The notes under the pieces: model-generated
The model's database searches: none
What the model was told of the DNA's origin: nothing
What the model saw: only the letters and a program-made list of their open reading frames with translations
Made by a program: the position numbers and the translations under genes
From: Bacteroidales bacterium
GTDB lineage: Bacteria > Bacteroidota > Bacteroidia > Bacteroidales > UBA4181
DNA: 47,504 nt
Direction: 5' to 3'
NCBI GenBank assembly: GCA_031551935.1
Contig: JAVBMZ010000073.1
Span: 1-47,504 of the forward strand
In this document: positions 309 through 31,807 of the stretch, in pieces
Position numbering within the stretch: position 1 is the first letter of the stretch
How the letters are laid out: each line of letters starts with the position of its first letter

Positions 309-397
309 CGAATTTCCTGTAAACATACAAATATGATACTGGGGCGTATCAAGTTTGTATGTTGCGCATGGAAGAATGAATGTATTCTACCATTTAT

Positions 398-481
398 TTG
401 TGATAAACATTAAAAATGTTGTGATGAATACTAAATGATTTGTGATACACGTTAAAAAGATTGTGGTAAACATTAAATAGG
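398..481. repeat. Four degenerate 21-bp tandem repeats
   Basis: TTGTGATAAACATTAAAAATG / TTGTGATGAATACTAAATGAT / TTGTGATACACGTTAAAAAGA / TTGTGGTAAACATTAAATAGG. Confidence 0.85.
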
Positions 482-486
482 ACGAT

Positions 487-924
487 ATGATACAATATCG
501 CGAAGCCTGTCAAGGTGATATTCCGCTACTATTGAAGCTATATGAACAATTGAATCCAGATGATCAGATGGTGGATCTATTGGTAGCAAATAATATTTGG
601 AAGACCATCGAACAGTGCGGTACCAAATATTTTGTTGCATTAGATGGTGAAAAAATCATTTCTTCATGTTACATCAGCATCATACCAAATTTAACAAGAA
701 ACGGACGATCCATAGGATTTATAGAAAATGTAATTACCGATAGTTTGTACCGACAAAGAGGTATAGGCAAGAGAATTATAGAAATGGCAATCGCATATGC
801 GCGGAAAAATAATTGTTACAAAGTATTATTACAAAGTAGTAATAAACGGGAAGAAGCTCATTCGTTTTATCAATCTATTGGATTTAATGGGGATTCAAAA
901 AAAGCATTTGAATTAAGACTTTAA
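487..924 (+). CDS. GNAT-family N-acetyltransferase
   Basis: IENVITDSLYRQRGIGK acetyl-CoA motif; AHSFYQSIGF. Confidence 0.9.
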   Translation: MIQYREACQGDIPLLLKLYEQLNPDDQMVDLLVANNIWKTIEQCGTKYFVALDGEKIISSCYISIIPNLTRNGRSIGFIENVITDSLYRQRGIGKRIIEMAIAYARKNNCYKVLLQSSNKREEAHSFYQSIGFNGDSKKAFELRL

Positions 925-1138
925 GCAAAATTTGTATTAGAGGTTTTGAAATACTTCAAGTGAATTGCGCTTACATTGGTATATGTATAAAATATAATTG
1001 TCGCTACTCAATAATTTAATGTATTCATTAAAATATATTATCTTTACCCTAAATTCGGTGCAAAATTTACCATTCGGGCGGATCATGTTTTGTATTTATA
1101 GAGCAATCCAGATGCGAACGATATATTAAAGTTGAGAA

Positions 1139-1915
1139 ATGAAAATCCTTGTTATCGGCGCAGGAAATATGGGCGCATGGTTTGTTGAATCATTGTGTTT
1201 GGAACATGATGTAGCAGTATTTGATATTGATAAACGTAAGTTGCGTTACTTTTTTAATGCGCACCGCTTTGTCAGCTTTGATCAAGTGAATGCATTTGCT
1301 CCAGAATTAGTCATCAATGCTGTCAGTCTGCAATATACCACCGCAGCATTCAATGATATATTACCCTATCTTCCGGATTATTGTATCATTTCCGATATTA
1401 CTTCTGTAAAAAACGGTTTATATGATTATTATCGCAATACTGGACGTCGGTTTGTATCTACACACCCCATGTTCGGCCCAACATTTGCCAGTTTAAAAGA
1501 GCTGAGCTCTCAAAGTGCCGTAATCATCACCGAAAGCGACGAGCAAGGCAAGCAATTTTTTCGTGATTTCTACAATTCGTTACACCTTAGTATTTATGAA
1601 TACTCTTTTGAGCAACATGATAAAACGATGGCTTATTCTTTGTCCATTCCGTTTGCGTCGACTATGGTATTTGCAGCCTGTATGAAACATCTGGAAGCTC
1701 CGGGAACCACGTTTAAAAAACATCTTGCCATTGCCCAGGGACTATTGTCGGAAAACGATTACCTGCTCAGTGAAATACTATTAAACCCTTATACTTTGCC
1801 GCAGATTGAAAAGATACATGAGAAACTTTCTGCATTGATGGAGATGATCCAGCAAAAAGACACCAAGGCCTTACATGAGTTTGTTGACGAGTTGCGGAAA
1901 AACATCAGAAACTAA
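1139..1915 (+). CDS. tyrA: Prephenate dehydrogenase
   Basis: N-terminal GAGNMG Rossmann motif, SDITSVK, HPMFGP, HDKTMAY. Confidence 0.92.
   Translation: MKILVIGAGNMGAWFVESLCLEHDVAVFDIDKRKLRYFFNAHRFVSFDQVNAFAPELVINAVSLQYTTAAFNDILPYLPDYCIISDITSVKNGLYDYYRNTGRRFVSTHPMFGPTFASLKELSSQSAVIITESDEQGKQFFRDFYNSLHLSIYEYSFEQHDKTMAYSLSIPFASTMVFAACMKHLEAPGTTFKKHLAIAQGLLSENDYLLSEILLNPYTLPQIEKIHEKLSALMEMIQQKDTKALHEFVDELRKNIRN
1840..1915 (+). repeat. 76-bp direct repeat, copy 1 (3' end of tyrA)
   Basis: Matches 5086-5161 at 70/76 positions by manual alignment. Confidence 0.95.
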
Positions 1916-4900
1916 AATGATTATCTGATGTAATACCTAAATTGATTTTTATAAGGAACAGTAGGTATTATCAACCTGTTGAATAAGGTTGTACCAAAGT
2001 ACCTTTAACTTAAAAGTTGTGCCCGACACATATCAGGGATATTAAGATGAAAGGATGGATGATAATGAAGCGGAAAATGAGAAAAATATTGGTATTTTTC
2101 CTGATGTTCACTATGATCTTTAGTGTTTTCACACTGATACCCATAACGGTCGCTAAGGCGAACAATCCGTATCTCCCGTTGTGGGAGCATCTGCCGGACG
2201 GTGAACCGCATGTTTTTGAAGATCCCGACCATCCGGGAAAATTCCGTATCTATATCATTGGATCTCACGACGTCAGGTTTAGAAGTTATTGTGGACCGGA
2301 CATAAGAGTTTGGTCGGCACCTGTTGAGGACTTGTCCAACTGGCGTGATGACGGACCTGTTTTTACATACCAAATAGACGAACAGTGGGATGTAATGTAC
2401 GCACCGGATCTCGTTGAAGTAAAAAGAAAAGACGGCACAAAGGAATACTATCTCTACCCGCATAGCCGTGGTCCGAACAGAGAAGCGATGGTTGCCAAAG
2501 GGAAACGCCCTGATGGTCCTTTTACCCCCATCAACCTGACTGCTGACGGAAAGCGTACTGTACCCGGAAGTATCATGGGATTCGACCCTTCTGTATATAT
2601 CGAATACGTCACAGATCCGAATGACCCTGATTATGAGATTGGTTTCAGGGCTTATGGATTCTGGGGCTTCCAAAGGTCGCTTGCAGCACAGTTGGATCAG
2701 AACACCATGTATTCGCTCCGTCCCGGAACGCAAATCATCAATTATTTTATACCTGCCAGTTCAAGATACGGGGTCATCAGAGATCCGGAAGGTACTGTTT
2801 ATCCCCATGTCATTTCGAGTGAGGATCTTAGCGGATTCAACTTTTTTGAAGCCGCATCCATACGTAAAGTTGGAAATAAATATGTTTGGGTTTACAGCGG
2901 ATATTCGGGCCCCGACTATGGATTAGGCAGCACCAACTCTGCGTTACGATATGCCTTCGGCGACTCCCCGCTAGGCCCGTGGAAAAGCGGCGGTGTTCTT
3001 GTTGATTCACGTGGACCAGTGTTAGACCAAACCGGCTCTGCCATACAAACTGGTAATGCGGCGCATAATACACATGGAAGCATCGAACAGATCAACGGTC
3101 AATGGTATGCATTCTATCACCGGCCGCCAAGAGGATTCGGAAATGCGCGTCAGCCGATGGTAGCCCCGGTTAAGATTGAATGGGACGAAAAGTCTGTCGC
3201 ACAAGGTGGGAAAGTTATGATCAGGGCATATGACCCGTATTCGGGAAATAATACATGGACTGCGAAGGATAGCCAAGGTAGAGAATATACTGGAGCCGAA
3301 GTTACTTCGGAAGGTTTCCATATCTACGGTCTGGATCCCTATCAATATTATTCCGCAGGATATGCATGTTATCTTTCTGACATTGGCACTCAGCAGGATT
3401 CGTGGGATATATGGGATAACCACATGCCCATTACCAATGTATCGAACGGTCATATCATCGGATACAAATATTTCGGTTTTGGTGGGCTTAAAAAGGATAC
3501 AAAAGGATTGAAAGCTTTTGAAGGAAGCAAACCGGGAAACAATACGGTGTTTAATTTGTACCTTTCGCCAAGAACAGCAAGCCAATTCAAGGTTTCTATT
3601 TGGTTGGACGGGCCTTGGGACAATGATACATGGAAAGGTAAAAAAATTGGCGAGATAAATGTTCCACCGAACTCTACGCAGGCAACGACAAAATTTACGG
3701 TCAACGTTTCTGAGTTTGTTGACCGGTTGGACAACAAGCACGCGATTTTTCTTGTTGCCGAAAGTAGAGATTCGGGCAGCCTTTTCGATTTAATCGGACT
3801 TGGGTTCAGTTCAAACGAAAAAAAGGTTGCTCGTCCAATAGCGCCTATGATAGGTATTTCTGTTGATGGAAAGGCGATAGAACTACCGGCAGTTCCGGTT
3901 AGGTCTACAAATGCAAACGGTATTGTCGGTTATGACCTTTATGAGGCCGTTTTTGCGCTTCCGTCCGGTACAGCCAAAATACCGACCATAACGGCGTCCG
4001 CGAGTGATCCATCTGTGAAAGTGGTCATCAAACAAGCAGAATTGCCTTCCGGAACAGCTGTTGTGAAATTTGATTATAAAGGCGTGGTCAAAACATACCG
4101 AGTCGCGTTTGTTTCGGAACAAAACTAACATGATATAAAATGTCATAAAGAAAATAATGAAATATCCATGTGACCTTAAAAATCAAATTTTATTCGCATG
4201 GATGGTATTTGTTGATTGCAGCATAAATACTCAAAAAAAAATTAAAAAAATAACATATGAAATCATTTGCGCAAAAAGTTAAATTTCTGTTTTTCATCGT
4301 GGTTATTGTTATTCCGGTTCATGCACAGACCATTGATCCGTGTATGCAAAACGATAAATTAACCGGTAATGTCAATCTCTCAATGAGAGGCAGTCAGGGA
4401 AAGGGAAATCTTGAAGGTACTCCGTATCATTATGAAGTATGGGTAGACAGAGGCGGCGCACAGGGTGCCACACTTTCGTGGTATGGAGCCAATCAGGGAG
4501 GAGGTGCGGCTTATAAAGCATCGTGGACAAACCCAGACTGCTATTTGGGACGTATAGGTTATTTTTGGGGTAATGGCCAGGAATATACCACATATAAAAA
4601 TATTTATGTGGATTTTAACTATACCAGATCAGGCAGAGGTACCGCCGGCGGACATTCTTATATTGGGATTTATGGCTGGTCGCGAAATCCTGACGCTTCA
4701 GATCCAAATGAACAATTGATCGAATATTACATTGTGGATGACTGGTTTGGCAATCAATGGCAATCAGATACCGTGCCTTTGGGTGTCGGTACAACGCGAG
4801 GAACCATCATTGGAACAATTACCGTGGATGGCGCTATTTATGATATACATAAAAGCTTGAGAGTCCAAAAGCCCTCCATAGATGGAACTAAAACATTTAC

Positions 4901-5085
4901 CCAGATTTTCAGCGTGCGGAGATACCTTCGCCAGTGCGGAACAATTTCTGTTACTGAACATTTTAAGAAATGGGAAGAATTGGGTTTAAAATTAGGTAAT
5001 CTATATGAGGCGAAGTTCCTTGTCGAAGCGGGTGCCGGTACAGGATGGATTGATCTTTCATATCTTTCGCTTTCTCAGGAAGAGG
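1916..5085. mobile_element. Inserted GH43-GH11 cassette bounded by the duplicated tyrA 3' end; no mobility gene
   Basis: Flanking 76-bp direct repeats; the cargo is two glycoside hydrolases. Insertion is inferred. Confidence 0.65.
2065..4128 (+). CDS. Secreted GH43-like five-bladed beta-propeller glycoside hydrolase with C-terminal accessory domains
   Basis: Signal peptide, then NPYLPLWEHLPDGEP, YAPD, GFDPSV, FFEAASIRK, NTHGSIEQINGQWYAFYH. Start chosen 6 nt after AAGGATGG; ORF track start is 2017. Confidence 0.8.
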   Translation: MKRKMRKILVFFLMFTMIFSVFTLIPITVAKANNPYLPLWEHLPDGEPHVFEDPDHPGKFRIYIIGSHDVRFRSYCGPDIRVWSAPVEDLSNWRDDGPVFTYQIDEQWDVMYAPDLVEVKRKDGTKEYYLYPHSRGPNREAMVAKGKRPDGPFTPINLTADGKRTVPGSIMGFDPSVYIEYVTDPNDPDYEIGFRAYGFWGFQRSLAAQLDQNTMYSLRPGTQIINYFIPASSRYGVIRDPEGTVYPHVISSEDLSGFNFFEAASIRKVGNKYVWVYSGYSGPDYGLGSTNSALRYAFGDSPLGPWKSGGVLVDSRGPVLDQTGSAIQTGNAAHNTHGSIEQINGQWYAFYHRPPRGFGNARQPMVAPVKIEWDEKSVAQGGKVMIRAYDPYSGNNTWTAKDSQGREYTGAEVTSEGFHIYGLDPYQYYSAGYACYLSDIGTQQDSWDIWDNHMPITNVSNGHIIGYKYFGFGGLKKDTKGLKAFEGSKPGNNTVFNLYLSPRTASQFKVSIWLDGPWDNDTWKGKKIGEINVPPNSTQATTKFTVNVSEFVDRLDNKHAIFLVAESRDSGSLFDLIGLGFSSNEKKVARPIAPMIGISVDGKAIELPAVPVRSTNANGIVGYDLYEAVFALPSGTAKIPTITASASDPSVKVVIKQAELPSGTAVVKFDYKGVVKTYRVAFVSEQN

Positions 5086-5093
5086 GGAGATGA
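4257..5093 (+). CDS. GH11 endo-1,4-beta-xylanase, catalytic domain only
   Basis: Signal peptide; YIGIYGW, LIEYYIVDDW (nucleophile Glu), PSIDGTKTFTQIFSVR, GTISVTEHFKKWE, LVEAG (acid/base Glu). Confidence 0.92.
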   Translation: MKSFAQKVKFLFFIVVIVIPVHAQTIDPCMQNDKLTGNVNLSMRGSQGKGNLEGTPYHYEVWVDRGGAQGATLSWYGANQGGGAAYKASWTNPDCYLGRIGYFWGNGQEYTTYKNIYVDFNYTRSGRGTAGGHSYIGIYGWSRNPDASDPNEQLIEYYIVDDWFGNQWQSDTVPLGVGTTRGTIIGTITVDGAIYDIHKSLRVQKPSIDGTKTFTQIFSVRRYLRQCGTISVTEHFKKWEELGLKLGNLYEAKFLVEAGAGTGWIDLSYLSLSQEEGR

Positions 5094-5161
5094 TCCAGCA
5101 AAAAGATACCAAGGCTTTGCATGAATTTGTTGATGGGTTGCGGAAAAACATCAGAAACTAA
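5086..5161 (+). repeat. 76-bp direct repeat, copy 2: orphan tyrA 3' end (EMIQQKDTKALHEFVDGLRKNIRN*)
   Basis: Six substitutions versus copy 1: five synonymous in the tyrA frame and one E>G. Confidence 0.95.
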
Positions 5162-5221
5162 TTCGTCTGGATTATGTTTACATGTTAAAAGCGGAGATGT
5201 TGTTGTGTAGAATTTGAATCT

Positions 5222-6139
5222 TTGAACTTGTCATCGGCTACTTTCTTTTACCGCGTTTTTGACCTTGTCGTTGAATCCCAGTACGAATGTCCTGAGTTAT
5301 TGTCTGATATAGGTTTGTCTGTGCCTGATATTCAGATATGTCAGGGTATAGTGCCCGATCATTTAGACAATGCTGTGACATTGGGGAGTTGGATAGAAGG
5401 GAATCCACAACAAATATTATTAAATATTTCCGGCGTAGCACGTTTCTTGATTGCAAATGCGAGGGAAATCACAGTACATCCTGATGAAAATGCTGTATCA
5501 GATAATATCCGTTTGTATTTGCTCGGATCGGCAATGGGAGCACTGCTGCATCAACGCGGAATATTGCCTTTCCATGGAAGTTCTGTTGCTTACGATGGAC
5601 AAGCGATTACTTTTTCAGGTCCATCGGGAATCGGAAAATCTACTTTAGCGGGAGCACTGGTTGCCCGGGGATACCGGATGCTGGCCGACGATATAAGTGC
5701 CATGTCTTTTTACGAAAATGGCTCACCATTGGTTAATCCTGGTATGCCTCAACTCAAACTACACAGTGATGCCATACAGCAGTTGGGATATGATCTTTCA
5801 TTGGCGCGCCCATTGGGTAACCATGCCGGAAAATACGGATATCCGGAACATACGGCATTTGTTTCCAACTCTTTGCCTTCTAAAACTATATACATACTTG
5901 GCAGACATACCGAAAATCGTTTTGAGGATATTGTATTAAAAGGTATGGATAAATTCCATGCATTACAAGTCAATGTATATCGTCCTTCTTTTGTGAAGGC
6001 CATGGGGATAGAACGCCGTCACTTTGACATGCTCCGGAAGCTTGCCTGGCAAGTGGATGTCCATCTGCTATTACGTCCTGCCGAGGACTTTCGCATAGAT
6101 GAATTAGCTGATCTTGTATCTCATTGGATAACAAAATGA
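5222..6139 (+). CDS. HPr-kinase-like serine kinase (related to lasso-peptide/PqqD-associated kinases)
   Basis: LLHQRGILPFHGSSV, Walker A GPSGIGKST, LADD; TTG start. Confidence 0.8.
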   Translation: MNLSSATFFYRVFDLVVESQYECPELLSDIGLSVPDIQICQGIVPDHLDNAVTLGSWIEGNPQQILLNISGVARFLIANAREITVHPDENAVSDNIRLYLLGSAMGALLHQRGILPFHGSSVAYDGQAITFSGPSGIGKSTLAGALVARGYRMLADDISAMSFYENGSPLVNPGMPQLKLHSDAIQQLGYDLSLARPLGNHAGKYGYPEHTAFVSNSLPSKTIYILGRHTENRFEDIVLKGMDKFHALQVNVYRPSFVKAMGIERRHFDMLRKLAWQVDVHLLLRPAEDFRIDELADLVSHWITK

Positions 6140-7530
6140 AGACGTGGATAAATGCTATTTTTGGTATACATTCCATGATGGGTGTCCTCATGGCTTTTTT
6201 TATTGCATCCTGTTCCCATGATGATACTGTATCGAATACTGGTTTGAAATTTTCTGCTGATACTGTGCGGTTCGATACCGTATTTACCACTTTAGGTTCT
6301 GCCACCAAGCGTTTGATAGTATATAATCCTGCCAAGCAAGCCGTTCATGTCAACATTGCATTGGAAGGAGGTGTTGCCTCGCCTTTTAAGCTCAACATCG
6401 ACGGATTGGCTGCAAATCACGTCGAAGGTATAGAAATAGCCGCCAAAGATAGCATGTATATTTTTGTGGAAGTAAAAGTGGATCCGCAAAATAGCGATAT
6501 TCCCGTTCTTATTGGTGATGCTGTGCTTTTTGAAACCGCCCTGTACCGACAGCGTGTTTTCTTGGAAGCATACGGACAGGATGTATTTATCCTGCGCGAT
6601 CAAACCATTCAAAGTCAGGTATGGTCGGGAGAAAAACCATACCTTGTGTATGGTCGTTTAGTGATCGATACTTTGGAGACGCTGCATATCGAAGCAGGTG
6701 TTCGTGTCTATATGCATCAGGGAGCAGGCATTTATGTGAAGGGAACGGTCGTTGCAGAGGGGGACGCGGATAGTCCTATTGTTTTCTCTGGAGATCGTTT
6801 AGAGAAGATGTATCATGATATTCCAGGGCAATGGGGAAGTGTTATATTTGGTACTGCGAGTGTCGACAATCTTTTGCGACATGTGGTTATTCGTAATGGT
6901 ACCAACGGACTGATATTTGGAAATCCTGAATACGCGCAAACCCCTGTTATCGCATTGAATGCTGTCACCATCGCCAATATGTCGTATGCAGGATTAATGA
7001 TTTTTGCCTCCGATATAGATGCTGTGAATTGTTTGATTGTCAATTGTGGTACATATACGGTGGGCTTATTTTGTGGAGGTACATCACGCTTTGTTCATTG
7101 CACCATTGCCAATAATTATTCACCCTACATTCGTCGCAGAGCCATTCCTTCTCTGGTAGTAAATCATGTGTATCCACTCTCCGGTACGATCGTTGAAGGG
7201 AGAATCCCTGCTAACATCTTTTTAGGGAATACGATCATCTATGGAACAATGGACGAGGAAATATCCATCGATCAAACTGCCGGATATTCTTTTGATCATT
7301 GTTTGTTACGAACTCAATTGAATACAACATCCGGTGCCTTTACTGATGTATTGGTGAATACTGATCCGTTATTTGTAGCTCCGGAAGATGGCGATTTTCA
7401 TTTGCAAGAAGCATCTCCTGCCCGGGATGCAGGAGATATGACTATAGATGTAACCATCACGGAAGATTTGGACGGTAACAATCGCATTGTTGGTCAGGCT
7501 CCGGATATAGGAGCTTATGAATGGCAGTAA
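6136..7530 (+). CDS. Lipoprotein with right-handed beta-helix repeats and a choice-of-anchor-Q-like C-terminus
   Basis: Lipobox IASC; FSADTVRFDTVFTT; PGQWGSV; DFHLQEASPARDAG...DLDGNNR...PDIGAYE; ATGA overlap with the upstream kinase. Confidence 0.75.
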   Translation: MKTWINAIFGIHSMMGVLMAFFIASCSHDDTVSNTGLKFSADTVRFDTVFTTLGSATKRLIVYNPAKQAVHVNIALEGGVASPFKLNIDGLAANHVEGIEIAAKDSMYIFVEVKVDPQNSDIPVLIGDAVLFETALYRQRVFLEAYGQDVFILRDQTIQSQVWSGEKPYLVYGRLVIDTLETLHIEAGVRVYMHQGAGIYVKGTVVAEGDADSPIVFSGDRLEKMYHDIPGQWGSVIFGTASVDNLLRHVVIRNGTNGLIFGNPEYAQTPVIALNAVTIANMSYAGLMIFASDIDAVNCLIVNCGTYTVGLFCGGTSRFVHCTIANNYSPYIRRRAIPSLVVNHVYPLSGTIVEGRIPANIFLGNTIIYGTMDEEISIDQTAGYSFDHCLLRTQLNTTSGAFTDVLVNTDPLFVAPEDGDFHLQEASPARDAGDMTIDVTITEDLDGNNRIVGQAPDIGAYEWQ

Positions 7531-20223: not shown

Positions 20224-20715
20224 ATGAAAATTCAAATCATACAGCAAAAAATATATGAAATTAGAGGATTTAGAGTAATCCTTGATAGGGATTTGGCGCT
20301 AATGTATGAGGTGACAACTTCTAATTTGAATAAGACTGTAAAACGAAATATGAGTCGTTTTACAGAAGGTTTTATGTTTCAGTTGAATAACGAAGAATTT
20401 AACTTGATATTCCATTTTGGAATATCAAGTTGGGGTGGTAATCGAAAAATACCTTATGCCTTTACAGAGCATGGGGTTGCAATGTTGGCCGGACTATTGA
20501 ATAGCCAAAAGGCCATTGAAATGAACATCCAAATTGTCCGTGCTTTTATACTTCTCAGGCAATATGCTTTAGGGTATGCAGAACTCAATCAAAAGTTAGA
20601 AAGTTTTATGATAGAGACGAATATGCAGTTTAATGAAATTTATCAAGCGCTTACCGAACTTGCCAGTCAAAAAGCATTAGAATCAAAACGCAATCCTGTT
20701 GGGTTCAGAAGATAA
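20224..20715 (+). CDS. ORF6N-domain DNA-binding protein
   Basis: IYEIRGFRVILDRDLA..YEV, VKRN..RF...FMFQL, PYAFTEHGVAML, RNPVGF. Confidence 0.9.
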   Translation: MKIQIIQQKIYEIRGFRVILDRDLALMYEVTTSNLNKTVKRNMSRFTEGFMFQLNNEEFNLIFHFGISSWGGNRKIPYAFTEHGVAMLAGLLNSQKAIEMNIQIVRAFILLRQYALGYAELNQKLESFMIETNMQFNEIYQALTELASQKALESKRNPVGFRR

Positions 20716-20750
20716 AAGTTTAAAGTTAAAATTCGAAAAATCTTAAATCA

Positions 20751-21995
20751 TTGAATTTTTTCAAAAAATATTTCAAAGGTGATCCTGCCATCTGGGCGAT
20801 TATTGTCGGCTTAAGCATTTTTTCACTGCTTGCGGTCTATAGTTCAACAGGGACATTGGCATACCGTTGGCAAGGAGGAAATACTGCGTATTACGTTATA
20901 CGGCATTCCACCTTCTTGGCGATAGCGCTGGCGATCATTTTTGTCGTGCATCAATTTCCTTATAAATACTATGCCCGTATTTCACAATGGCTGTTAATCG
21001 TGGTGATACCATTGTTGTTATTCACACTTTTATTTGGAGTAGACGAAAATGATGCTACACGGCGTATTTCTTTTTTGGGATTGACATTTCAAACTTCCGA
21101 TTTAGCTAAATTGGCACTTATCATGTACTTGGCGCAACGTTTGGCAGTGAAACAAGGACAAATTTTAGATTTCAAGAAAACTTTATTGCCGATGTTTATC
21201 ACCATTGGTATTGTGTGTGCATTGATCATGCCGGCCAACTTCAGTACAGCCTTTTTGCTCTTCGGTGCGTGTATTGTATTGCTGTTTATTGGCCGGACAT
21301 CTTTTAAGCAGTTATCTGGATTATGCGCCATCACCTTGGTAGCGGTTATGTTATTGGTAGGAGCACTGTACGGCTTACAAAAAGCAGGAATGAATAATGT
21401 TATCACGAAACGTGCTACTACGTGGGTAGCTCGTTTTGATCGTTTTACCTCCGATGAACCGGATAGCAATAGCGAACTGGATGAAAATTACCAGGCAACG
21501 CAAGCTAAGATTGCCGTGGGGACGGGAGGCTTCTTCGGGAAAGGACCAGGGAACAGCGTGCAACGGAATTTTCTGCCACATCCTTATTCCGATTTTATTT
21601 TTGCCATCATTCTTGAGGAATACGGTATTGCTGGCGGAGTTGTGATACTTTTCTTATACCTCAACCTGTTGTACCGAACTGTACTGATGGTACGAAAATG
21701 CGAGAAAACTTTTCCGGCTTTTTTAGCCACGGGATTAGCGATAACACTGGTTTTTCAGGCATTAATCAATATGATGGTGGCTGTGGGATTGATACCGGTT
21801 ACCGGACAACCATTACCTTTGATCAGTATGGGTGGTACTTCCATACTGTTCACTGGCGTGTCTTTCGGCATTATATTGGCCATTAGCAGGGAGATGATGC
21901 GACAGGAGGAATTGAAAGCAGCCCGCGAAGCCAAAGAACAACAAGCAGAAGAAGGACAAGAGCAGGAGGTAATAGCGCAACCGTCTCAAACCTAA
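20751..21995 (+). CDS. ftsW: SEDS peptidoglycan polymerase FtsW
   Basis: FQTSDLAK, GKGPGNS, LPHPYSDFIF, PVTGQPLPLISMGGTS. Confidence 0.95.
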   Translation: MNFFKKYFKGDPAIWAIIVGLSIFSLLAVYSSTGTLAYRWQGGNTAYYVIRHSTFLAIALAIIFVVHQFPYKYYARISQWLLIVVIPLLLFTLLFGVDENDATRRISFLGLTFQTSDLAKLALIMYLAQRLAVKQGQILDFKKTLLPMFITIGIVCALIMPANFSTAFLLFGACIVLLFIGRTSFKQLSGLCAITLVAVMLLVGALYGLQKAGMNNVITKRATTWVARFDRFTSDEPDSNSELDENYQATQAKIAVGTGGFFGKGPGNSVQRNFLPHPYSDFIFAIILEEYGIAGGVVILFLYLNLLYRTVLMVRKCEKTFPAFLATGLAITLVFQALINMMVAVGLIPVTGQPLPLISMGGTSILFTGVSFGIILAISREMMRQEELKAAREAKEQQAEEGQEQEVIAQPSQT

Positions 21996-22082
21996 ATATG
22001 TCATGAGTAAACTCGCGTCAATATATTTTGTGTCAGCAATTTGTAAAATTGATATAAAGTAAAAACCATAAAACGTAACATC

Positions 22083-23252
22083 ATGGTAGTACCCATTGAA
22101 TCGGAAAGTAGTACAACATCGGGACAACGTCGCCGTGTCATCATCAGCGGAGGAGGTACGGGAGGTCACATATACCCGGCTATTGCCATAGCCAAGGCTT
22201 TGGTCAGAAAAGATCCTACCATCAAAATACTTTTTGTAGGTGCCGAAGGACGCATGGAGATGGAAAAAATACCCGCTGCAGGGTACAAAATCATCGGACT
22301 TCCCGTGCGGGGTTTCGATCGCAAGAATTGGTTACAAAATATTCCAGTATTATATCGTTTAATTAAAAGCCTGTTTATTGCAAGGGTTATTGTTAAGCGT
22401 TTTCGACCAAATGCTGCCATTGGGGTAGGAGGATATTCCAGTGGTCCGTTGTTGCGGGCAGCAGCCGGCAGAAAGGTGCCTTGCATCATTCAGGAACAAA
22501 ACTCATACGCGGGTGTCACTAACAAGTTGTTGGCTAAAAAAGTAGATAAGATATGTGTGGCCTATGACGGAATGGAGCGTTTTTTTCCAAAAGAAAAGAT
22601 GGTTATTACCGGTAATCCGGTTCGACAGGAATTGGAGCAATGTCCTGTATTGCGCGATCAAAGTTTGTCGTTTTTCGATTTAGACCCTGAGAAGCAAACG
22701 ATACTTGTTTTAGGAGGCAGCCTTGGCGCGAGAACCATCAATCAAAGTGTCGAATCCCAGTTAGATAATGTTCCTGCCAATGTGCAGGTGATTTGGCAAA
22801 CGGGAGCATTATATTATGATGGGGCAAAAGAACGTTTGAAAGACAAGAAGTATCCTAACCTCAAGATATTTGATTTTATCCAGAGGATGGATTTGGCTTA
22901 TGCGGCGGCCGATTTAGTGATTTCGCGTGCCGGAGCGGGAACCATTTCGGAATTAACCATTGTGGGCAAGCCTTGTATCCTTGTTCCGTCGCCCAATGTC
23001 GCTGAAGATCACCAGACGCAGAATGCAATGGCATTGGTGAACAAAAAAGCAGCCATCATGATTAAGGATAACGAAGCGAGGGAAAAATTGATGCTTATTG
23101 CCATAGAAATGGTTCAAAACCCTGAAACTTTAGAACCTCTTGCGGATAATATCCGCAGGTTGGCGCATTATCATTCGGCAGATACTATTGCAGATATTGT
23201 CATACAATTGATGGATGCAAAGAGTACCCGGAAAAAACGTAATATACAGTGA
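22083..23252 (+). CDS. murG: Lipid II GlcNAc transferase
   Basis: GGGTGGHIYP, GGY, EQNS, GNPVR, GGSLGA, SRAGA, DHQ. Confidence 0.97.
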   Translation: MVVPIESESSTTSGQRRRVIISGGGTGGHIYPAIAIAKALVRKDPTIKILFVGAEGRMEMEKIPAAGYKIIGLPVRGFDRKNWLQNIPVLYRLIKSLFIARVIVKRFRPNAAIGVGGYSSGPLLRAAAGRKVPCIIQEQNSYAGVTNKLLAKKVDKICVAYDGMERFFPKEKMVITGNPVRQELEQCPVLRDQSLSFFDLDPEKQTILVLGGSLGARTINQSVESQLDNVPANVQVIWQTGALYYDGAKERLKDKKYPNLKIFDFIQRMDLAYAAADLVISRAGAGTISELTIVGKPCILVPSPNVAEDHQTQNAMALVNKKAAIMIKDNEAREKLMLIAIEMVQNPETLEPLADNIRRLAHYHSADTIADIVIQLMDAKSTRKKRNIQ

Positions 23253-23298
23253 TTTAGTCATATCATTATCATTGGATACATTCATCCAGACATCAAAA

Positions 23299-24681
23299 AT
23301 GTTAAACCAAATACATCAGGTTTATTTTATCGGTATCGGAGGTATCGGTATGAGCGCTTTGGCAAGGTATTTCAAGGTGAAGGGCTATGAGGTTTGCGGT
23401 TACGACCGTACCGAAACTGTGCTCACAAAAAAGTTATGTGCGGAAGGCATTCCGGTACATTATGCCGATGATGTTGCTGCTATTCCATGGTCATATCAGA
23501 CAGCAAAAGAGCAAGTGTTGGTGGTCTATACACCGGCAGTTCCCGACGAACACAGTGAAATGTTGTGGTTCAAAAGCAGAGGTTACCTGATGATGAAACG
23601 TTCTGAAGTGCTCGGTTTGATCTCAAAAGCGAAGAAAACCATTGCTGTGTCCGGAACACATGGTAAAACCACAGTTTCGACCATGATTTCACATTTGTTG
23701 ACTGCCACAGGCATTGGTTGCGATGCCTTTTTGGGTGGTATTTCGAAAAATTACCAAACCAATTTGTTGTTGTCTGCCAATAGTGAATATCTGGTAGCCG
23801 AAGCTGATGAATATGACCGTTCGTTTTTACAGTTGTATCCTTACATTGCTGTGGTGACCGCTACGGATGCCGATCATCTTGACATATATGGTACGCATGA
23901 CCAATTGGAAGAGGCGTTTGCCCAATTTGTATCACAAATAACTCCCGGAGGAATCCTGCTGATGAAGTATGGATTGCATCTTACGGTTCCACAAGGTGTA
24001 CGTGTGTTGACCTATTCGCTGGACAATACGAAAGCTGATTTTCACGCGGAAAACATTTCTATTGACCAAGATCGTTATTCGGTAGATATTTGTACTCCAT
24101 CCGGTACGATTCGTCGTGTACCTATCGGCGTGCCCGGATTGGTTAACGTGGAAAATAGTGTTGCAGCCATTGCTGTGACCTGTTTGCTTGGAGCAGGGGA
24201 AGATAAGATAAAAGCAGGTATTGCCTCCTTTGAAGGTGTACAGCGTCGGTTCGATTATCGTGTCCGTACAGACAAAGTGGTATATATTGACGATTATGCA
24301 CATCATCCGGAGGAGCTGCGTTTCACCATTGACTCTGTCCGTAGCTTGTATCCGCGAAGACGCATTACAGGTATTTTCCAACCGCATTTATATAGCCGTA
24401 CCCGTGATTTTGCCGACGGATTTGCAAAAAGTCTCAGCCTGCTGGATGCTTTGATATTGCTTGATATTTATCCGGCACGTGAAAAGCCTATTGCAGGAGT
24501 CACGTCGCAAATGATATTGGATAAAGTGTCCATTCAGGATAAATGTTTGTGTTCTAAAAACGAACTTATCGACGTTCTTGAGAACAAGAAAATAGACGTG
24601 TTATTGACCATGGGAGCCGGTGACATTGATACGTTGGTACGGCCTATTGAAGAGTGGTTAAAAACAAAAATGGATGAATAG
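23299..24681 (+). CDS. murC: UDP-MurNAc:L-Ala ligase
   Basis: GIGGIGMSALA, GTHGKTT, EADE, DDYAHHP, FQPH, GAGDI; likely start MLNQ. Confidence 0.97.
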   Translation: MLNQIHQVYFIGIGGIGMSALARYFKVKGYEVCGYDRTETVLTKKLCAEGIPVHYADDVAAIPWSYQTAKEQVLVVYTPAVPDEHSEMLWFKSRGYLMMKRSEVLGLISKAKKTIAVSGTHGKTTVSTMISHLLTATGIGCDAFLGGISKNYQTNLLLSANSEYLVAEADEYDRSFLQLYPYIAVVTATDADHLDIYGTHDQLEEAFAQFVSQITPGGILLMKYGLHLTVPQGVRVLTYSLDNTKADFHAENISIDQDRYSVDICTPSGTIRRVPIGVPGLVNVENSVAAIAVTCLLGAGEDKIKAGIASFEGVQRRFDYRVRTDKVVYIDDYAHHPEELRFTIDSVRSLYPRRRITGIFQPHLYSRTRDFADGFAKSLSLLDALILLDIYPAREKPIAGVTSQMILDKVSIQDKCLCSKNELIDVLENKKIDVLLTMGAGDIDTLVRPIEEWLKTKMDE

Positions 24682-24892
24682 TTTATATGTTATTAATATT
24701 GTATTTTTGATATTTCAAATAAATCATTTTGCATATTAATAATATATAAAATAAAATATTAGTAATTGATATAATTAGATGTTTTAAATTAAAAAATAAA
24801 TCTATTATAAATAAATATAATTATTTATTTGTAATAGATGATAATGATGATTATTAATGGGTAATTATATATGTTAATAATAAATTAATATA

Positions 24893-24900
24893 TATATTTG
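24893..24900 (+). promoter_or_regulatory. Bacteroidota -7 promoter box at the end of a very AT-rich spacer
   Basis: TATATTTG ends 19 nt before the ATPase ATG. Confidence 0.5.
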
Positions 24901-24919
24901 TGCCATCTAAATTTGAAAA

Positions 24920-26137
24920 ATGGTACCATTGTCAGTTTTAAAGCAAGTTGCCGACGAGCAGAGATTGAATATCAAACTCCGCGATACAGGCTTGTTGCGT
25001 GAAAAACTGGCCGACTTGCCCGACATCACTTCACGGGCGTTGGTTGTTTCGGGTGTTCGGCAAGGTGGAAAAAGTGTTTTATTGTCCCAATGGTTGACCA
25101 AAAAGCGACAGGATGCTTTTTATCTACATTTTGAAGATTTTAGATTGTCGGATTTTGAATGGTCTGATTTTCAGTCATTAGATATGGTCATTCGTGATTC
25201 ACGTAAACGTGTGTTGTTCTTTGAAGAAATACAGGTGGTAGCATCATGGGAATTGTATGTTGGCAAAAAACTTGACGAGGGATTCTGCGTGGTATGCACC
25301 AATTCGAACGCTTCATGGTTGAATCAGGCTCCGGGAGCAAAATTGGCAGAAAAATACATTTCTAAAGAGCTTTTCCCGTTTTCATATCGCGAATTCCTGC
25401 AATATAAAGTATTAAAAAAAGGCACACATTCACTGGTACAGTACTTGGATCAAGGCGGTTTTCCCGAATATCTTAAGACTGGGAATCCCAATGTGTGGTC
25501 TGCTTTATTTAACGATATCATCCATAGGGATATTATTGTCCGGCATGGTGTCAGGGATGTCAGTTCATTGAAACGTTTGGTATCGTATTTGATGTCGCAT
25601 GTGGGTAATCTTGTCACTGCTTCGAAATTGAAGCAAATTCTTTCTATCAAGACGACGGTGACAGTATTGGAGTATTTTTCATACATAGAACAAACATATT
25701 TAGTCCACTTCCTGCCAAAATTTAGCCATTCGCTGAAGTCTCAAATGATAAACCCCCGGAAGATCTATGTGGTCGATCCGGGATTCATTCGGGTAGCATC
25801 GACATTATTCACAAAGGATAAAGGATATTTGTTGGAGAATTGCATTTATGGGCACCTGAAGCGTACAGGGTACGATTTGTATTATTTTAGTGAAAACGGG
25901 TGCGAATGTGATTTTGTGGTCATGAAAAACGGGCAGGTAAAGCAGTTGGTGCAGGTTTGTTACGAATTGAATCCGGAAAATACGGCCCGTGAGCAGAAGG
26001 GGTTGAAGGCGGCAATGGACTCTTTTGGCGTAGATAAGGGATGGATGGTGACTTTTCGTGATAAAGGCACTTATGCGCAAGGTGAACAACAGGTCAAAAT
26101 AGTACCAGCGTATGAATATTTATTGGAAAATATCTAA
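24920..26137 (+). CDS. AAA_14 + DUF4143 ATP-binding protein
   Basis: GVRQGGKS, FEEIQ, LFPFSYREF, GGFPE, PRKIYVVDPG, LEN, ECDFV, LVQVC. Confidence 0.88.
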   Translation: MVPLSVLKQVADEQRLNIKLRDTGLLREKLADLPDITSRALVVSGVRQGGKSVLLSQWLTKKRQDAFYLHFEDFRLSDFEWSDFQSLDMVIRDSRKRVLFFEEIQVVASWELYVGKKLDEGFCVVCTNSNASWLNQAPGAKLAEKYISKELFPFSYREFLQYKVLKKGTHSLVQYLDQGGFPEYLKTGNPNVWSALFNDIIHRDIIVRHGVRDVSSLKRLVSYLMSHVGNLVTASKLKQILSIKTTVTVLEYFSYIEQTYLVHFLPKFSHSLKSQMINPRKIYVVDPGFIRVASTLFTKDKGYLLENCIYGHLKRTGYDLYYFSENGCECDFVVMKNGQVKQLVQVCYELNPENTAREQKGLKAAMDSFGVDKGWMVTFRDKGTYAQGEQQVKIVPAYEYLLENI

Positions 26138-26926
26138 ATGAAGCGGTTTCTGAACATATTGTTCTGGTTGGCGATGGCAGCTTACTTTTTCTTCGCTTTA
26201 GGATTTGTATCCGACCGTAGGCATGGTTTGATATGTACCGGCGTGGAAGTGGTGGTGACCGATAGCGCACGCAGCCGATTTGTGACTGCGGCTGATATTT
26301 CCCAAATGGTGGACAATCGCACCCAAAAGCTGACGGGTAGACTATTTGATAGCATCAATACACAAAAAATAGAACAGCGTTTGGATGGTTATGCGCCGGT
26401 AAACCGTTCCGAAGTGTACAAAACCATCGACGGGAAGTTGTGTATCAATGTTGAACAGCGTATCCCTGTGTTGCGTATCATGAACCGTTACGGAGAAAGT
26501 TATTATCTTGACGAGCGAGGCGAAGCATTGAAGCATTCAAGCCGTTACAGTGCCCATGTTTTGGTAGCCAATGGCTACATTAATCAGCGTGCGCCAGGGC
26601 AACAAGGCTTTAATGTGTTGAAAGAGGATACGCCACCGGAAAAAAGGAGTATCATACGCGAATTGTTCTATTTGGCGAATTATATCAATGATGATAAGTT
26701 CTGGAAGGCACAAATCCAGCAAGTTTATGTTAATGAAGATGGTGATTTTGAATTGATCCCACGTGTTGGGGCGCACGTAATTGTTTTTGGCGCTTTCGAC
26801 AGGGCGGACGACAAGTTTTCCCGTCTTGAATCGTTGTACCGCAATGGGTTAAATGTGAAAGGATGGAATACATATGATGTTATTAATTTAAAATATGAAG
26901 GGCAAATAGTTTGCACGAGAAGATAG
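26138..26926 (+). CDS. ftsQ: Cell division protein FtsQ
   Basis: N-terminal TM, QRIPVLRI, YYLD, ELIPRVG, INLKYEGQIVCT; upstream of ftsA. Confidence 0.9.
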   Translation: MKRFLNILFWLAMAAYFFFALGFVSDRRHGLICTGVEVVVTDSARSRFVTAADISQMVDNRTQKLTGRLFDSINTQKIEQRLDGYAPVNRSEVYKTIDGKLCINVEQRIPVLRIMNRYGESYYLDERGEALKHSSRYSAHVLVANGYINQRAPGQQGFNVLKEDTPPEKRSIIRELFYLANYINDDKFWKAQIQQVYVNEDGDFELIPRVGAHVIVFGAFDRADDKFSRLESLYRNGLNVKGWNTYDVINLKYEGQIVCTRR

Positions 26927-26996
26927 AATTTGATGAAATAGAGTAGAAGTGATAAAAATATTATAATAGACAAACATATCAATCAATAAAAACAAT

Positions 26997-28379
26997 ATGG
27001 AAAGCATGCCTCAATACGTTGCCGCGATAGATGTCGGCACGACTAAGATTGTAACCCTTCTGGGAAAACGTAACGAGAATAAGAAATTGGAGATCATCGG
27101 GTTTACCCGTTCCGATTCTAAGGGTATCAGGCGCGGCGAAGTGCTGAATCCTGAAGAAGCCTCTAATGTGGTAAGAGATACCATTGTCGATTTACAAAAG
27201 CGCACTGGTGTCATCTTTTCCGAGGTGTTTGTCGGCATTGCCGGACAACACATACGCATCATGAAGAGCCGTAACTATATCAACCGTGCGTCTTATGATG
27301 ATAGCATCACGATAGAAGATATCGAGCAATTGAAAAGGGATGCCAACAATATTGCTTTGGAAGAAGGGAAGGAAATTATCCATATTTTACCTCAAAGCTA
27401 TATTGTGGATAATGAAACAGATATTTTCAACCCGATCGGGATGCTTGGTAAGCGGCTTGAAGCCAACTTTAATATTGTGGTTGGAAACATCGACTCTATC
27501 AAACGTATCAGGAAATGTGTCCACCAAACGGGTTTGACTATCAAAGAAGTGATTCTTGAACCGTTGGCGTCGGCTGATGCTGTCTTGTACGATGAAGAAC
27601 GTGAATCCGGCGTAGCATTGGTAGATCTCGGCGGTGGAACTACCGATGTGGCCATATTTTATGAAAATGTGTTGCGTCATTCTGCGGTGATTCCTTTTGG
27701 AGGTTACGTAGTCACCAAGGATATCAAAGACGCTTGCGGATTGAGCGAACAAGTTGCCGAAGAAGTAAAAGTGCAATTTGGTATGGCGCTTAGTGAAGCG
27801 GCTGAAGAAAACAAAGTGATTGTCATTCCAGCCAAGGTGCCAGGACGTGAGCCGAAAGAAATTTCATTTCGGAATTTGGCGCATATTATCCAATCGCGCA
27901 TGGAAGAAATTATTGATGCCATCATGTTTCATGTCGAAAATTCAGGTTGTGCTGATAAGTTGGGTTCCGGGATTGTCATTACAGGCGGCGGAGCTATGCT
28001 CAAGTACTTGAAGCAATTGTTTCATTACCGGACCGGTTTGGATGTGCGTATTGGTTATCCGGGCGAACATTTGACAGGTGAGTCGGACAATATCAACGAA
28101 CCTTGTTATGCAACCGGGGTCGGTTTGCTGATGAAAGGATTTGAATATATGGACGCACATGAAGATGAATATTGGGAAGCTAAAAAAACACAAGAACTCC
28201 CCGAAAAAGAAATTCCTTTTACCGTCGAAAGGTCAACATCAGAAAATGATGATGTGGATGTCCGTGAAAAATCGAAGCATAAAGAGCCGAAAAAGGAGCG
28301 CAAACCAGGGCGGCTTTCTCTGGAAAAAATCAAAGAGGCTATTGGCGGTTATTTTGATATGCCCGACAGTGAAATGTAA
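26997..28379 (+). CDS. ftsA: Cell division protein FtsA
   Basis: IDVGTTK, LEPLASA, DLGGGTT, ITGGGA; C-terminal amphipathic helix. Confidence 0.97.
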   Translation: MESMPQYVAAIDVGTTKIVTLLGKRNENKKLEIIGFTRSDSKGIRRGEVLNPEEASNVVRDTIVDLQKRTGVIFSEVFVGIAGQHIRIMKSRNYINRASYDDSITIEDIEQLKRDANNIALEEGKEIIHILPQSYIVDNETDIFNPIGMLGKRLEANFNIVVGNIDSIKRIRKCVHQTGLTIKEVILEPLASADAVLYDEERESGVALVDLGGGTTDVAIFYENVLRHSAVIPFGGYVVTKDIKDACGLSEQVAEEVKVQFGMALSEAAEENKVIVIPAKVPGREPKEISFRNLAHIIQSRMEEIIDAIMFHVENSGCADKLGSGIVITGGGAMLKYLKQLFHYRTGLDVRIGYPGEHLTGESDNINEPCYATGVGLLMKGFEYMDAHEDEYWEAKKTQELPEKEIPFTVERSTSENDDVDVREKSKHKEPKKERKPGRLSLEKIKEAIGGYFDMPDSEM

Positions 28380-28422
28380 TATCGCAAGTTGAAGATGCTG
28401 ATGCATTGATAATAACTTGCCA

Positions 28423-28430
28423 TAATTTTG
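28423..28430 (+). promoter_or_regulatory. Possible internal -7 promoter box for the LTA-synthase-like gene and ftsZ
   Basis: TAATTTTG ends 11 nt before ATG 28442. Confidence 0.4.
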
Positions 28431-28441
28431 TATCCTATTGT

Positions 28442-30388: not shown

Positions 30389-30400
30389 AAACAAATAGCT

Positions 30401-31807
30401 ATGGTAATAGACGATTTATCCATCGAATGGCCGGAAAACAAATCATCCATCATTAAAGTGGTCGGTGTGGGCGGCGGCGGCGGAAACGCTGTGACCTATA
30501 TGTACCAACAAGGTATCCATAATGTGAATTTTGTGATATGCAACACTGATGCACAAGCATTGGAGAAAAGTCCGGTTCCTGTGAAAATCCAGTTGGGAAA
30601 AAGCAAAACCGAAGGATTAGGCGCAGGCAATAAACCTGAAGTAGGTCGCGAAGCTGCTTTGGATTCCCTTGATGAGATTCGCGATGTATTGAATACTGGC
30701 ACCAAAATGGTGTTTGTTACGGCCGGAATGGGCGGTGGCACTGGTACAGGTGCTGCGCCGGTCATTGCAAAAATCGCCAAAGAGTTGGGGATATTGACGG
30801 TGGCCATCGTAACGATCCCATTTCGCTTTGAGGGCTCTCAGCGGTTTAGGCAAGCGATTGAAGGGATTAATGAGTTGAAAGATCACGTAGATTCATTGTT
30901 GATCATCAATAATGAGAAATTACGCGAAATGTATGGTAATTTGAAGATCCGCGAAGCTTTTTCGAAAGCCGATAATGTATTGACGATGGCTGCTAAGGGT
31001 ATTGCTGAATTAATAACCCTTCCCGGAGATGTAAATGTGGATTTTGCTGACGTGAGCACCATTATGAGTAATGGAGGCATTACTGTCATGGGCTCTGCGA
31101 CTTCTACAGGAGCCAATCGTGCTCGGGAAGCTGTTGAAGCGGCTTTGAATTCACCTTTGCTGAATAATAATGATATCACCGGTGCACGGCGTATCTTGCT
31201 GAACATTACATCGGGAATAGGCGAAAATGAAGTGACTATGGACGAGTTGATTGAAATCACAGACTATGTCACTCGTTCTGCCAAAAATGCGTCCATGATT
31301 TGGGGTACCGGTAATGACGAAGCGCTTGGTGATGCCGTATGTGTTACTATTGTGGCTACCGATTTCCCGACCAATTGTTTTCCTGAATTAGAGATTATCT
31401 ACAAACCGGAAAAAGAAAGAATACCATTGCCTGTTGATGATCTTCCCGGAAAAACGACACTTAAAACTTCGGTCGGTTCTTCAGGAGATGCATCGGCCAC
31501 ATCCACTGTTTTCGAAGTGCGGGAGAAATCGACGATGTCTTCACAGGGCAAAATAGAATGGGGAGTACCAACAGAAACTGCTACCGAAATGGTAGAGCGC
31601 CCAAGGTCTATACCTTCTATTGTCGATGAAAATGCCAATATAGAGGAATTAGAGAATACGCCGGCCTATATCCGGAAGAAGATCAAAATAGACAATCAAG
31701 CAGCCGGAACTGAAAATGAGGTTTCAAAATATACGCTTAGTGCAGACAAAGACAATGTGGTGCGGTTGAGAGATAATAATTCATACTTGTATGATGTAGT
31801 AGACTAA
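30401..31807 (+). CDS. ftsZ: Cell division GTPase FtsZ
   Basis: GVGGGGGNA, NTDAQAL, GMGGGTGTG, NVDFAD; Bacteroidota-type tail NNSYLYDVVD. Confidence 0.98.
   Translation: MVIDDLSIEWPENKSSIIKVVGVGGGGGNAVTYMYQQGIHNVNFVICNTDAQALEKSPVPVKIQLGKSKTEGLGAGNKPEVGREAALDSLDEIRDVLNTGTKMVFVTAGMGGGTGTGAAPVIAKIAKELGILTVAIVTIPFRFEGSQRFRQAIEGINELKDHVDSLLIINNEKLREMYGNLKIREAFSKADNVLTMAAKGIAELITLPGDVNVDFADVSTIMSNGGITVMGSATSTGANRAREAVEAALNSPLLNNNDITGARRILLNITSGIGENEVTMDELIEITDYVTRSAKNASMIWGTGNDEALGDAVCVTIVATDFPTNCFPELEIIYKPEKERIPLPVDDLPGKTTLKTSVGSSGDASATSTVFEVREKSTMSSQGKIEWGVPTETATEMVERPRSIPSIVDENANIEELENTPAYIRKKIKIDNQAAGTENEVSKYTLSADKDNVVRLRDNNSYLYDVVD

Follow-up and report, generated by a model that had tools for sequence, protein, structure and literature searches.

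In the window analyzed here (the whole of contig JAVBMZ010000073.1 of assembly GCA_031551935.1, from a Bacteroidales bacterium; 47,504 nucleotides [nt]), the 3' end of tyrA, a gene of the prephenate dehydrogenase type, occurs twice, and a GH43-like glycoside hydrolase gene and a GH11 endo-xylanase gene lie between the two copies. Arrangements of this kind have precedents: insertion with long target duplication was reportedly described by Nobusato et al. in 2000, homology-facilitated illegitimate recombination (HFIR) by de Vries and Wackernagel in 2002, Prudhomme et al. in 2002, and Meier and Wackernagel in 2003, and the element e14 at icd/icdC in Escherichia coli K-12 by Hill et al. in 1989. 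In the first class, as far as the available part of the source describes it, blocks of less than 20 kb that contain no mobility genes and carry restriction-modification (R-M) cargo are flanked, in many bacteria, by direct repeats of more than 30 bp that duplicate the target; the repeats are ∼93 to 100% identical, and some overlap the 3' end of a gene (Furuta et al. 2010, PMC2853133). Of 60 clones recovered after conjugation in E. coli, 56 had the homologous segment duplicated over 109 to 950 bp by a single crossover with a recircularized, partly degraded plasmid, and 4 of the 60 were true HFIR events that gave an insertion with a deletion (PMC3240628, in the sections available). The e14 element, a prophage of 15 kb, encodes a site-specific recombinase of its own and is excised upon SOS induction (according to the accessible portion of PMC13626634). 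For T6SS (type VI secretion system) effector-immunity arrays of Vibrio cholerae and for the displacement of rhs C termini, HFIR without an integrase has been proposed (PMC5361080, from an excerpt of the article).

The tyrA locus shares with insertions with long target duplication a direct repeat of more than 30 bp (here, 76 nt), an insert of less than 20 kb (here, 3,170 nt), and the lack of a mobility gene. It differs in that the published cases have R-M cargo and an empty-site strain, whereas here the cargo consists of two glycoside hydrolases, one joint lies inside a cargo gene, and no empty site was found among the relatives compared. Common to Campbell-type insertion, HFIR, and this locus would be one homologous exchange together with an illegitimate joint at which microhomology would be slight or absent; the likeness to Campbell-type insertion extends to a duplicated segment that equals the shared homology and occurs, in direct orientation, on either side of the insert. 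Those cases, however, come from laboratory work (with E. coli, Acinetobacter, Streptococcus, and Pseudomonas), and here the homology is 76 nt at 92% identity; canonical HFIR, moreover, produces a deletion where this locus has a duplication. As at icd, to the extent that the source text available for e14 covers it, incoming DNA would have supplied a new 3' end to a housekeeping gene, and the old end persists as a C-terminal pseudogene with mainly synonymous differences, but this locus has no recombinase, an insert of 3.2 kb, a joint that appears accidental, and no recurrent use of the site among the tyrA loci compared. As in the T6SS arrays and rhs loci (in the same excerpt), DNA anchored in a conserved upstream gene would have displaced the resident 3' part, which persists downstream as an orphan; there, polymorphic toxins are under diversifying selection and the orphan immunity genes are functional, whereas the anchor in the present case is a biosynthetic gene whose remnant has no function.

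The structure is most likely a fixed recombination scar of a known class and not the footprint of a mobile element. The phenomenon as such is already known; what is new is a joint inside the GH11 gene and a GH11 stop codon taken from the tyrA remnant, and both the cargo and the amount that the joint reveals are unusual. We consider it reasonably probable that DNA of a closely related lineage was captured by a homology-anchored, recombinase-independent event, that is, by a recircularized single crossover or by HFIR. The locus shows fiber-degrading genes added behind an essential gene without mobile-element machinery, with that gene left unbroken, in an uncultivated gut symbiont, and the truncated GH11 tail together with the stranded tyrA end pins one recombination joint to the base. 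A literature search returned no paper that combines prephenate dehydrogenase, an integration site, and a genomic island.

A preliminary description of this DNA had reported that the last 76 bp of tyrA recur 3.2 kb downstream with 70 identities. The repeat search confirmed this, returning a single direct repeat of 76 nt (70/76 identical [92%]; spacing, 3,246 nt) (Table 1); blastn against the 3.07-Mb assembly found these two copies (E value of 7e−25) and no third copy genome-wide, so the match is not due to chance. Homology between the copies begins abruptly at positions 1840 and 5086 and stops at the tyrA stop codon (positions 1915 and 5161), the two copies, one on each side of the insert, stand in direct orientation, and the longest exact blocks common to the copies are 21 and 25 nt. 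Copy 2 consists of 25 codons without a start codon or promoter context, i.e., a displaced 3' end left as a pseudogene, and it contains no indel. The six differences are exactly those listed previously and are all transitions; five are synonymous changes at third codon positions in the tyrA frame (GAC/GAT, GCC/GCT, TTA/TTG, GAG/GAA, and GAC/GAT), and one is a second-position change (GAG/GGG, glutamate to glycine). The corresponding values are 0.017 for dN, 0.56 for dS, and ∼0.03 for dN/dS (NG86, 24 codons).

These differences had been taken as the mark of two tyrA alleles that diverged under coding selection, as opposed to a simple target-site duplication. The second part of this claim is supported, and the first is likely to be correct: the best match of each copy was the other copy (92%), the next best being ≤85% identical among 227 loci compared, dN/dS is low, and the glycine state of copy 2 also occurs in a functional tyrA orthologue of a congener (G007). 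The statistics behind it are modest. The probability of finding at least five of six differences synonymous was 0.025 under randomly placed transitions and 0.08 to 0.11 if copy 2 alone drifted and copy 1 was under selection, and the pattern of differences alone is no proof.

The right end of the insert carries a feature that the preliminary description had missed. The GH11 ORF extends 8 nt into copy 2, and its TGA stop codon (positions 5091 to 5093) is tyrA derived and out of frame. In 9 of 11 aligned GH11 relatives, five further residues follow a conserved Q-E-x, at which point the window has G-R-stop; the remaining 2 end earlier, which suggests that the GH11 C-terminal tail is probably dispensable. 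At most a few G residues could be common to both sides as microhomology at 5085/5086. A joint that falls within the last codons of GH11 has the signature of an illegitimate joint, and we read it as such and not as an evolved attachment site. The insert between the copies, 3,170 nt long, contains two hydrolase genes only according to the open reading frame (ORF) list, as had been stated, although the first is better called GH43-like than GH43 and the second ends inside copy 2. The tRNA and Rfam scans found no tRNA or Rfam family between the copies.

Which of the copies lies in the older context was assessed by comparison with the genus (15 species genomes, i.e., the window genome, G000, and 14 congeners) and the family (20 other genomes, 6 of them of other genera). 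In the congener G002, tyrA is followed on one contig by an RDD gene, a serpin gene, and then, 2.1 kb downstream of tyrA, the pair formed by an HprK-like and a beta-helix gene. Since the same pair follows copy 2, the comparison supports copy 2 as lying in the older chromosomal context and the cargo as the newcomer, in keeping with the earlier view that the resident tyrA end was displaced. Among the congeners, the pair is downstream of tyrA only in G002. RDD follows tyrA in five congeners, with serpin after RDD in G001 and G002, and both genes are absent from G000; because copy 2 adjoins the HprK-like gene, their loss would predate the insertion or be separate from it. By its distribution, the cargo is accessory: GH11 was found in none of the 20 other family genomes, the GH43-like gene was found in none of the 14 congeners and in 4 of the 6 family members of other genera, and neither gene was found at any other tyrA locus examined.

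In the capture event that we favor, the donor DNA would have contained, in this order, a tyrA 3' end, a GH43-like gene, and a GH11 gene, and the resident tyrA of the recipient would then have been directly upstream of the HprK-like gene. One exchange would have been homologous, within tyrA, and the other joint would have been illegitimate, linking the region of the fifth-from-last codon of GH11 to tyrA position −76. By one route, termed (a) here, a linear fragment from tyrA −76 to GH11 −15 would have been recircularized by end joining, and one Campbell-type crossover in the 76-nt homology would have inserted it, duplicating exactly that homology. By the other, route (b), HFIR would have brought in a linear fragment whose illegitimate end came to lie within the anchor region. 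Both routes would leave tyrA intact, strand the old end as a remnant, and give GH11 a fortuitous stop codon. In favor of the capture, the insert has on both sides a direct copy of precisely the shared homology, the product found in experiments in which a recircularized molecule integrated by a single crossover. Of this account, the repeat, the place of the joint, the lack of mobility genes, and a cargo not shared within the genus are observed, whereas the donor, the sequence of events, and the choice between the routes are inferences. Since both spacers of the cargo block carry leader motifs that are common to G000 and its congeners, the block seems to have been pieced together inside this genus, which suggests a related donor. 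Given strain-resolved data, acquisition by a single crossover and acquisition by HFIR could be tested against each other at this locus in a natural setting.

It had also been proposed that tyrA is a landing pad for carbohydrate-active enzyme (CAZyme) cargo, with islands to be looked for at its 3' end in other Bacteroidales. A repeat at the tyrA site used in the window was found in 0 of 57 loci at the genus or family level (≥68% amino acid [aa] identity; 17 from relatives and 40 of 41 from metagenomes) and in 0 of 39 remoter metagenome loci (80 metagenome loci in total). At one metagenome locus (L134), whose intact tyrA is 86% aa identical to that of the window, a 58-nt stretch from within tyrA recurs 2.2 kb downstream of the gene (positions 970 to 1027 and 3345 to 3402; 54/58 identical), with three of the four differences synonymous. 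This remnant lies in an intergenic gap, two tandem genes for leucine-rich repeat (LRR) proteins lie on the opposite strand between the tyrA copies, and the fragment corresponds to ∼150 to 208 nt before the tyrA stop codon, a position unlike that of the window repeat. We take it to be a second, independent scar and count it in favor of the capture. No tyrA fragment of any kind was found at the loci of the 17 relatives or at the other 79 metagenome loci.

The first ORF downstream of tyrA fell into 40 homology groups among 45 genus-level loci, a count for the tyrA flank alone that has no genome-wide baseline, and the flanks of the HprK-like module are likewise variable. The count marks the tyrA stop codon as a sharp synteny boundary. 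The landing pad proposal is supported in part, by the hypervariable flank and the L134 scar, the latter at another tyrA position; no CAZyme cargo was seen at the other loci. Tentatively, the tyrA 3' boundary might be a recurrent, recombinase-independent gene-capture point in this termite gut Bacteroidales genus, at which the conserved gene acts as the homologous anchor for the strain-to-strain movement of accessory genes (xylanases, LRR proteins, and many others) and each event leaves at most a short tyrA fragment; we hold this broader idea to be possible but doubtful. If it is true, housekeeping gene ends, and not mobile elements, would drive much of the accessory gene turnover in these uncultivated symbionts.

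Several observations weigh against the capture of related DNA by either route. The 14 congeners, the 80 metagenome loci, the contig collections, and the Sequence Read Archive (SRA) yielded neither a close relative or strain nor an empty site or donor arrangement, and the donor is for this reason one that we infer. The closest tyrA among the 14 congeners is 79% identical at the nt level, the best of the 80 metagenome loci is 86% aa identical, and an exact 24-mer of the tyrA end had 0 matches in metagenome contigs and in genome contigs. Route (a) needs a crossover within 76 nt at 92% identity, with exact blocks of 21 and 25 nt, which would be rare, and the L134 scar could not have been produced by it. 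Canonical HFIR combines an insertion with a recipient deletion beside the anchor, and here recipient sequence was duplicated, so that for route (b) the joint would have to be unusually placed. Divergence in situ is not decisively countered by the synonymous bias (P value of 0.08 to 0.11), and the sequences that bridge the junctions come from the probable source run and are not independent of the assembly.

Divergence in situ belongs to an alternative in which a staggered break in the resident tyrA led to an insertion with long target duplication, both copies having the same origin and copy 2 drifting later; we give it a small but appreciable chance. For many bacteria, target duplications of 46 to 423 bp without mobility genes are on record (Furuta et al. 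2010, PMC2853133, in the part available), the excess of synonymous differences is not significant against this course of events (P value of 0.08 to 0.11), and all six differences are transitions. Copy 2, however, has no indel and only one nonsynonymous-type change in 76 nt despite a dS of 0.56, and this change is a state known in a working orthologue. A divergence of 8% would also imply an old event, yet no relative has it, the relatives found being too distant to test this, and the L134 remnant shows the same synonymous excess (three of four differences).

The preliminary description had offered a tyrA-targeting integrative element as one explanation, and the searches for mobility genes speak against it. 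Such an element, of the e14/icd type, would carry an attachment site (attP) with a surrogate tyrA 3' end and would displace the resident end, its integrase having been lost or acting in trans. The topology is the same as that of e14, where icd extends into the prophage and icdC is a C-terminal pseudogene at the far end (PMC13626634, as given in the part at hand); in addition, the tyrA stop codon is the exact end of the repeat, and the differences between the copies look allelic. Pfam was used to scan 29 window ORFs (9 + 10 + 10, those at positions 20224 to 31807 being left out), and PHROGs to scan 7 ORFs; together with the tRNA and Rfam scans, they revealed no integrase, transposase, tRNA, or phage family gene between or beside the copies, and the spacers of 131 and 128 nt are too small for a remnant of an integrase gene. 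The supposed attachment joint truncates GH11, the same site is unused in the 57 genus- and family-level and the 39 remoter tyrA loci, the L134 scar lies elsewhere in tyrA, and the cassette had no match among 72,556 plasmid and 50,697 phage records. An integrative element at this site thus appears unlikely.

We treat the duplicated structure as real. The source assembly is a metagenome bin in 206 contigs that is 89% complete, with the window being an entire contig, and a fragmented bin of this kind could contain a chimera of two strains or a misjoin at the repeat; the tyrA of a related species is also present in the sequencing run concerned (X1, record 4). An SRA word index gave three runs, and the stretch is present in X1 alone, which is the sole public run containing this DNA and probably the source sample, so that its Logan contigs are a separate assembly of data that are not independent. 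Those contigs bridge both ends of the insert, which bears on the question raised earlier of whether the junctions are spanned (by contigs, not reads): record 2 corresponds to positions 889 to 2718 with 1 mismatch, and record 6 corresponds to positions 3399 to 5455 with 0 mismatches, at depths of 10.7 and 10.2, respectively, similar to those of the flanks. The exact shared blocks of 21 and 25 nt are too short to confuse an assembler with a k of 31 or larger, and whichever strain it came from, an actual DNA molecule must have carried the GH11/tyrA joint. No joint linking 1840 to 5086, as in an empty or excised form, is listed in the X1 contigs, which drop rare variants. An assembly artifact is very improbable. 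Equally hard to credit is that the cargo overwrote a second tyrA paralogue in tandem and left its last piece as copy 2, which would explain an allele-like remnant shaped by selection without a donor, since no tandem or second close tyrA was found at the loci of the 17 relatives or the 80 metagenome loci, and G011 has merely a distant second match (66% identical) on another contig.

Table 1. Coordinates of the features of the tyrA locus in the window
Feature	Position	Strand	Remarks
tyrA-type prephenate dehydrogenase gene, intact, 258 aa	1139..1915	+	Pfam PDH_N; congener identity
tyrA repeat copy 1	1840..1915	+	Working last 25 codons of tyrA, stop codon included
Spacer unique to this genome	1916..2046	+	131 nt; ends in 14-nt leader motif (2016-2029), ~17 nt before ATG at 2047
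Cargo gene 1, divergent GH43-like glycoside hydrolase	2047..4128	+	Signal-peptide-like N terminus; start in ORF list, TTG at 2017; first ATG, 2047
Spacer between GH43-like gene and GH11	4129..4256	+	128 nt; ~30-nt leader motif plus ATG at 4172-4201
Cargo gene 2, GH11 endo-xylanase with signal peptide (predicted)	4257..5093	+	Catalytic domain complete; native C-terminal tail replaced at joint
Putative illegitimate joint	5085..5086	.	GH11-derived DNA ends at or before 5085; tyrA-derived DNA from 5086, in +1 frame relative to GH11
tyrA repeat copy 2	5086..5161	+	Probable displaced, promoterless remnant of second tyrA allele; its DNA contains the GH11 TGA (5091-5093)
Resident genes downstream: HprK-related kinase-like gene (5222-6139) and beta-helix/choice-of-anchor-Q gene (6124-7530)	5222..7530	+	Pfam, NCBIfam

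The assignment of the anchor gene to the TyrA family appears sound. Its product matches Pfam PDH_N with 43.4 bits (cutoff, 26.5; E value of 3.2e−11), and its top NCBIfam matches are prephenate dehydrogenase models, all of them well under their equivalog cutoffs (the best at 69 bits versus 310). The orthologues are 257 to 263 aa long, and the window protein is 79.7 to 89.5% aa identical to those of 13 congeners.

For the first cargo gene, GH43-like is a defensible label and the one that we consider best. The ORF has no Pfam match even at an E value of 10 and no NCBIfam match, and the Glyco_hydro_43 profile (PF04616) does not match it. Residues 47 to 337, however, match GH43 enzymes in the PDB, namely, the arabinofuranosidase/xylosidase 9no3_A (E value of 2.3e−28) and also 5a8c_A and 4nov_A, and its ESM-Atlas neighbors are clusters named "putative family 43 glycosylhydrolase" (score, 0.97), with PF04616 in 15% of the members of one cluster. 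The gene has a GC content of 45.9%, within the top 2% of 2-kb windows. Its product is 70 to 80% aa identical to those of 80 Bacteroidota loci. As an observation in its own right, this ∼700-aa family is found at such identity across the Bacteroidota (Bacteroides, Sphingobacterium, Marinilabilia, and others) without having a Pfam or NCBIfam model, and it appears to be an unusually conserved, unmodeled, glycoside hydrolase-like family. At 70 to 80% identity throughout the phylum, a tree would be unable to tell transfer within the family from vertical descent.

The second cargo gene encodes a protein with a signal-peptide-like N terminus that matches Pfam Glyco_hydro_11 with 117.4 bits (cutoff, 27; E value of 7.1e−34) over profile positions 4 to 175 of 178. 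E156 and E257, which we take to be the two conserved glutamates with a catalytic role, are invariant in an alignment of 12 sequences. The nearest relatives are 79% identical and lie on metagenome contigs; relatives with names come from termite gut Treponema, Dysgonamonadaceae, and Fibrobacteres-type metagenome-assembled genomes. A preformed traveling cassette of the two cargo genes was considered and rejected, as none of seven GH11 loci holds a GH43-like gene; 1 of the 80 GH43-like loci holds a GH11-like gene, which is merely 28% identical.

The spacer between tyrA and the GH43-like gene showed no homology beyond its 14-nt leader motif. This motif stands ∼12 to 20 nt before the ATG of unrelated genes, most of them encoding signal peptides, in several species of the genus, with sites in G003 (L128), G007 (L129), G014 (L130), and G000 itself (C6:3569); one gene product downstream of it scores slightly below the NVEALA Pfam cutoff. 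One possibility is a 5' leader or a regulatory element specific to the genus. The ∼30-nt motif with its ATG in the second spacer is followed there by a dead ORF of five codons. On two other G000 contigs it abuts the starts of real genes (C45:757 and C118:11447), and it also occurs on several G014 contigs; the copy in the spacer could be what is left of an overwritten gene, or else a promoter or leader that was captured.

Downstream of copy 2, the HprK-like and beta-helix genes (positions 5222 to 7530) travel as a conserved pair whose flanking genes differ in nearly every species (L013 and L220 to L227). Of the 14 congeners, 9 have at least the beta-helix gene and 8 have both genes, with no match to the HprK-like gene in G006. 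Also downstream, the window contains a sigma factor gene, a NusG-like gene, and the dcw cell division cluster. On the upstream side, 4 of 14 congeners (G001, G005, G007, and G009) and 26 of the 41 metagenome loci at the genus level have a gene for an outer membrane protein (OMP) beta-barrel immediately before tyrA, with a gap of at most ∼150 nt. In G000 only, ∼830 nt (window positions 309 to 1138) separate the two, and this region contains a GNAT acetyltransferase gene (positions 487 to 924) with a GC content of 33% and a third-position GC content (GC3) of 26%, the latter strongly unlike that of the cargo. The GNAT orthologue in G003 (75% nt identity) is located elsewhere, and only the coding region is common to the two genomes. 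In view of these two observations, a joint arrival of GNAT, tyrA, and the cargo as one block was not favored. With the GNAT gene upstream and the cargo downstream, accessory DNA lies on both sides of tyrA.

Self-blast of G000 gave 53 same-strand repeat pairs 300 to 60,000 nt apart. Eleven of them were inspected, including the tyrA pair, and the other 10 were paralogues, hairpin repeats, or iteron-like arrays. The iteron-like arrays are intergenic and consist of ∼21-nt tandem units, three to six per array, at six or more sites in the genome; the window has one at positions 396 to 478, just upstream of the GNAT start, and others were seen at C22:13893-13970, C107:6720-6797, C32:19647-19723, C56:6582-6657, and C37:33355-33422. 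A second iteron-like family, also with ∼21-nt units but of another sequence, occurs in G000 at C137:7125-7220 and 31878-31973, 24.6 kb apart, and at C196:232-360 and 4391-4519.

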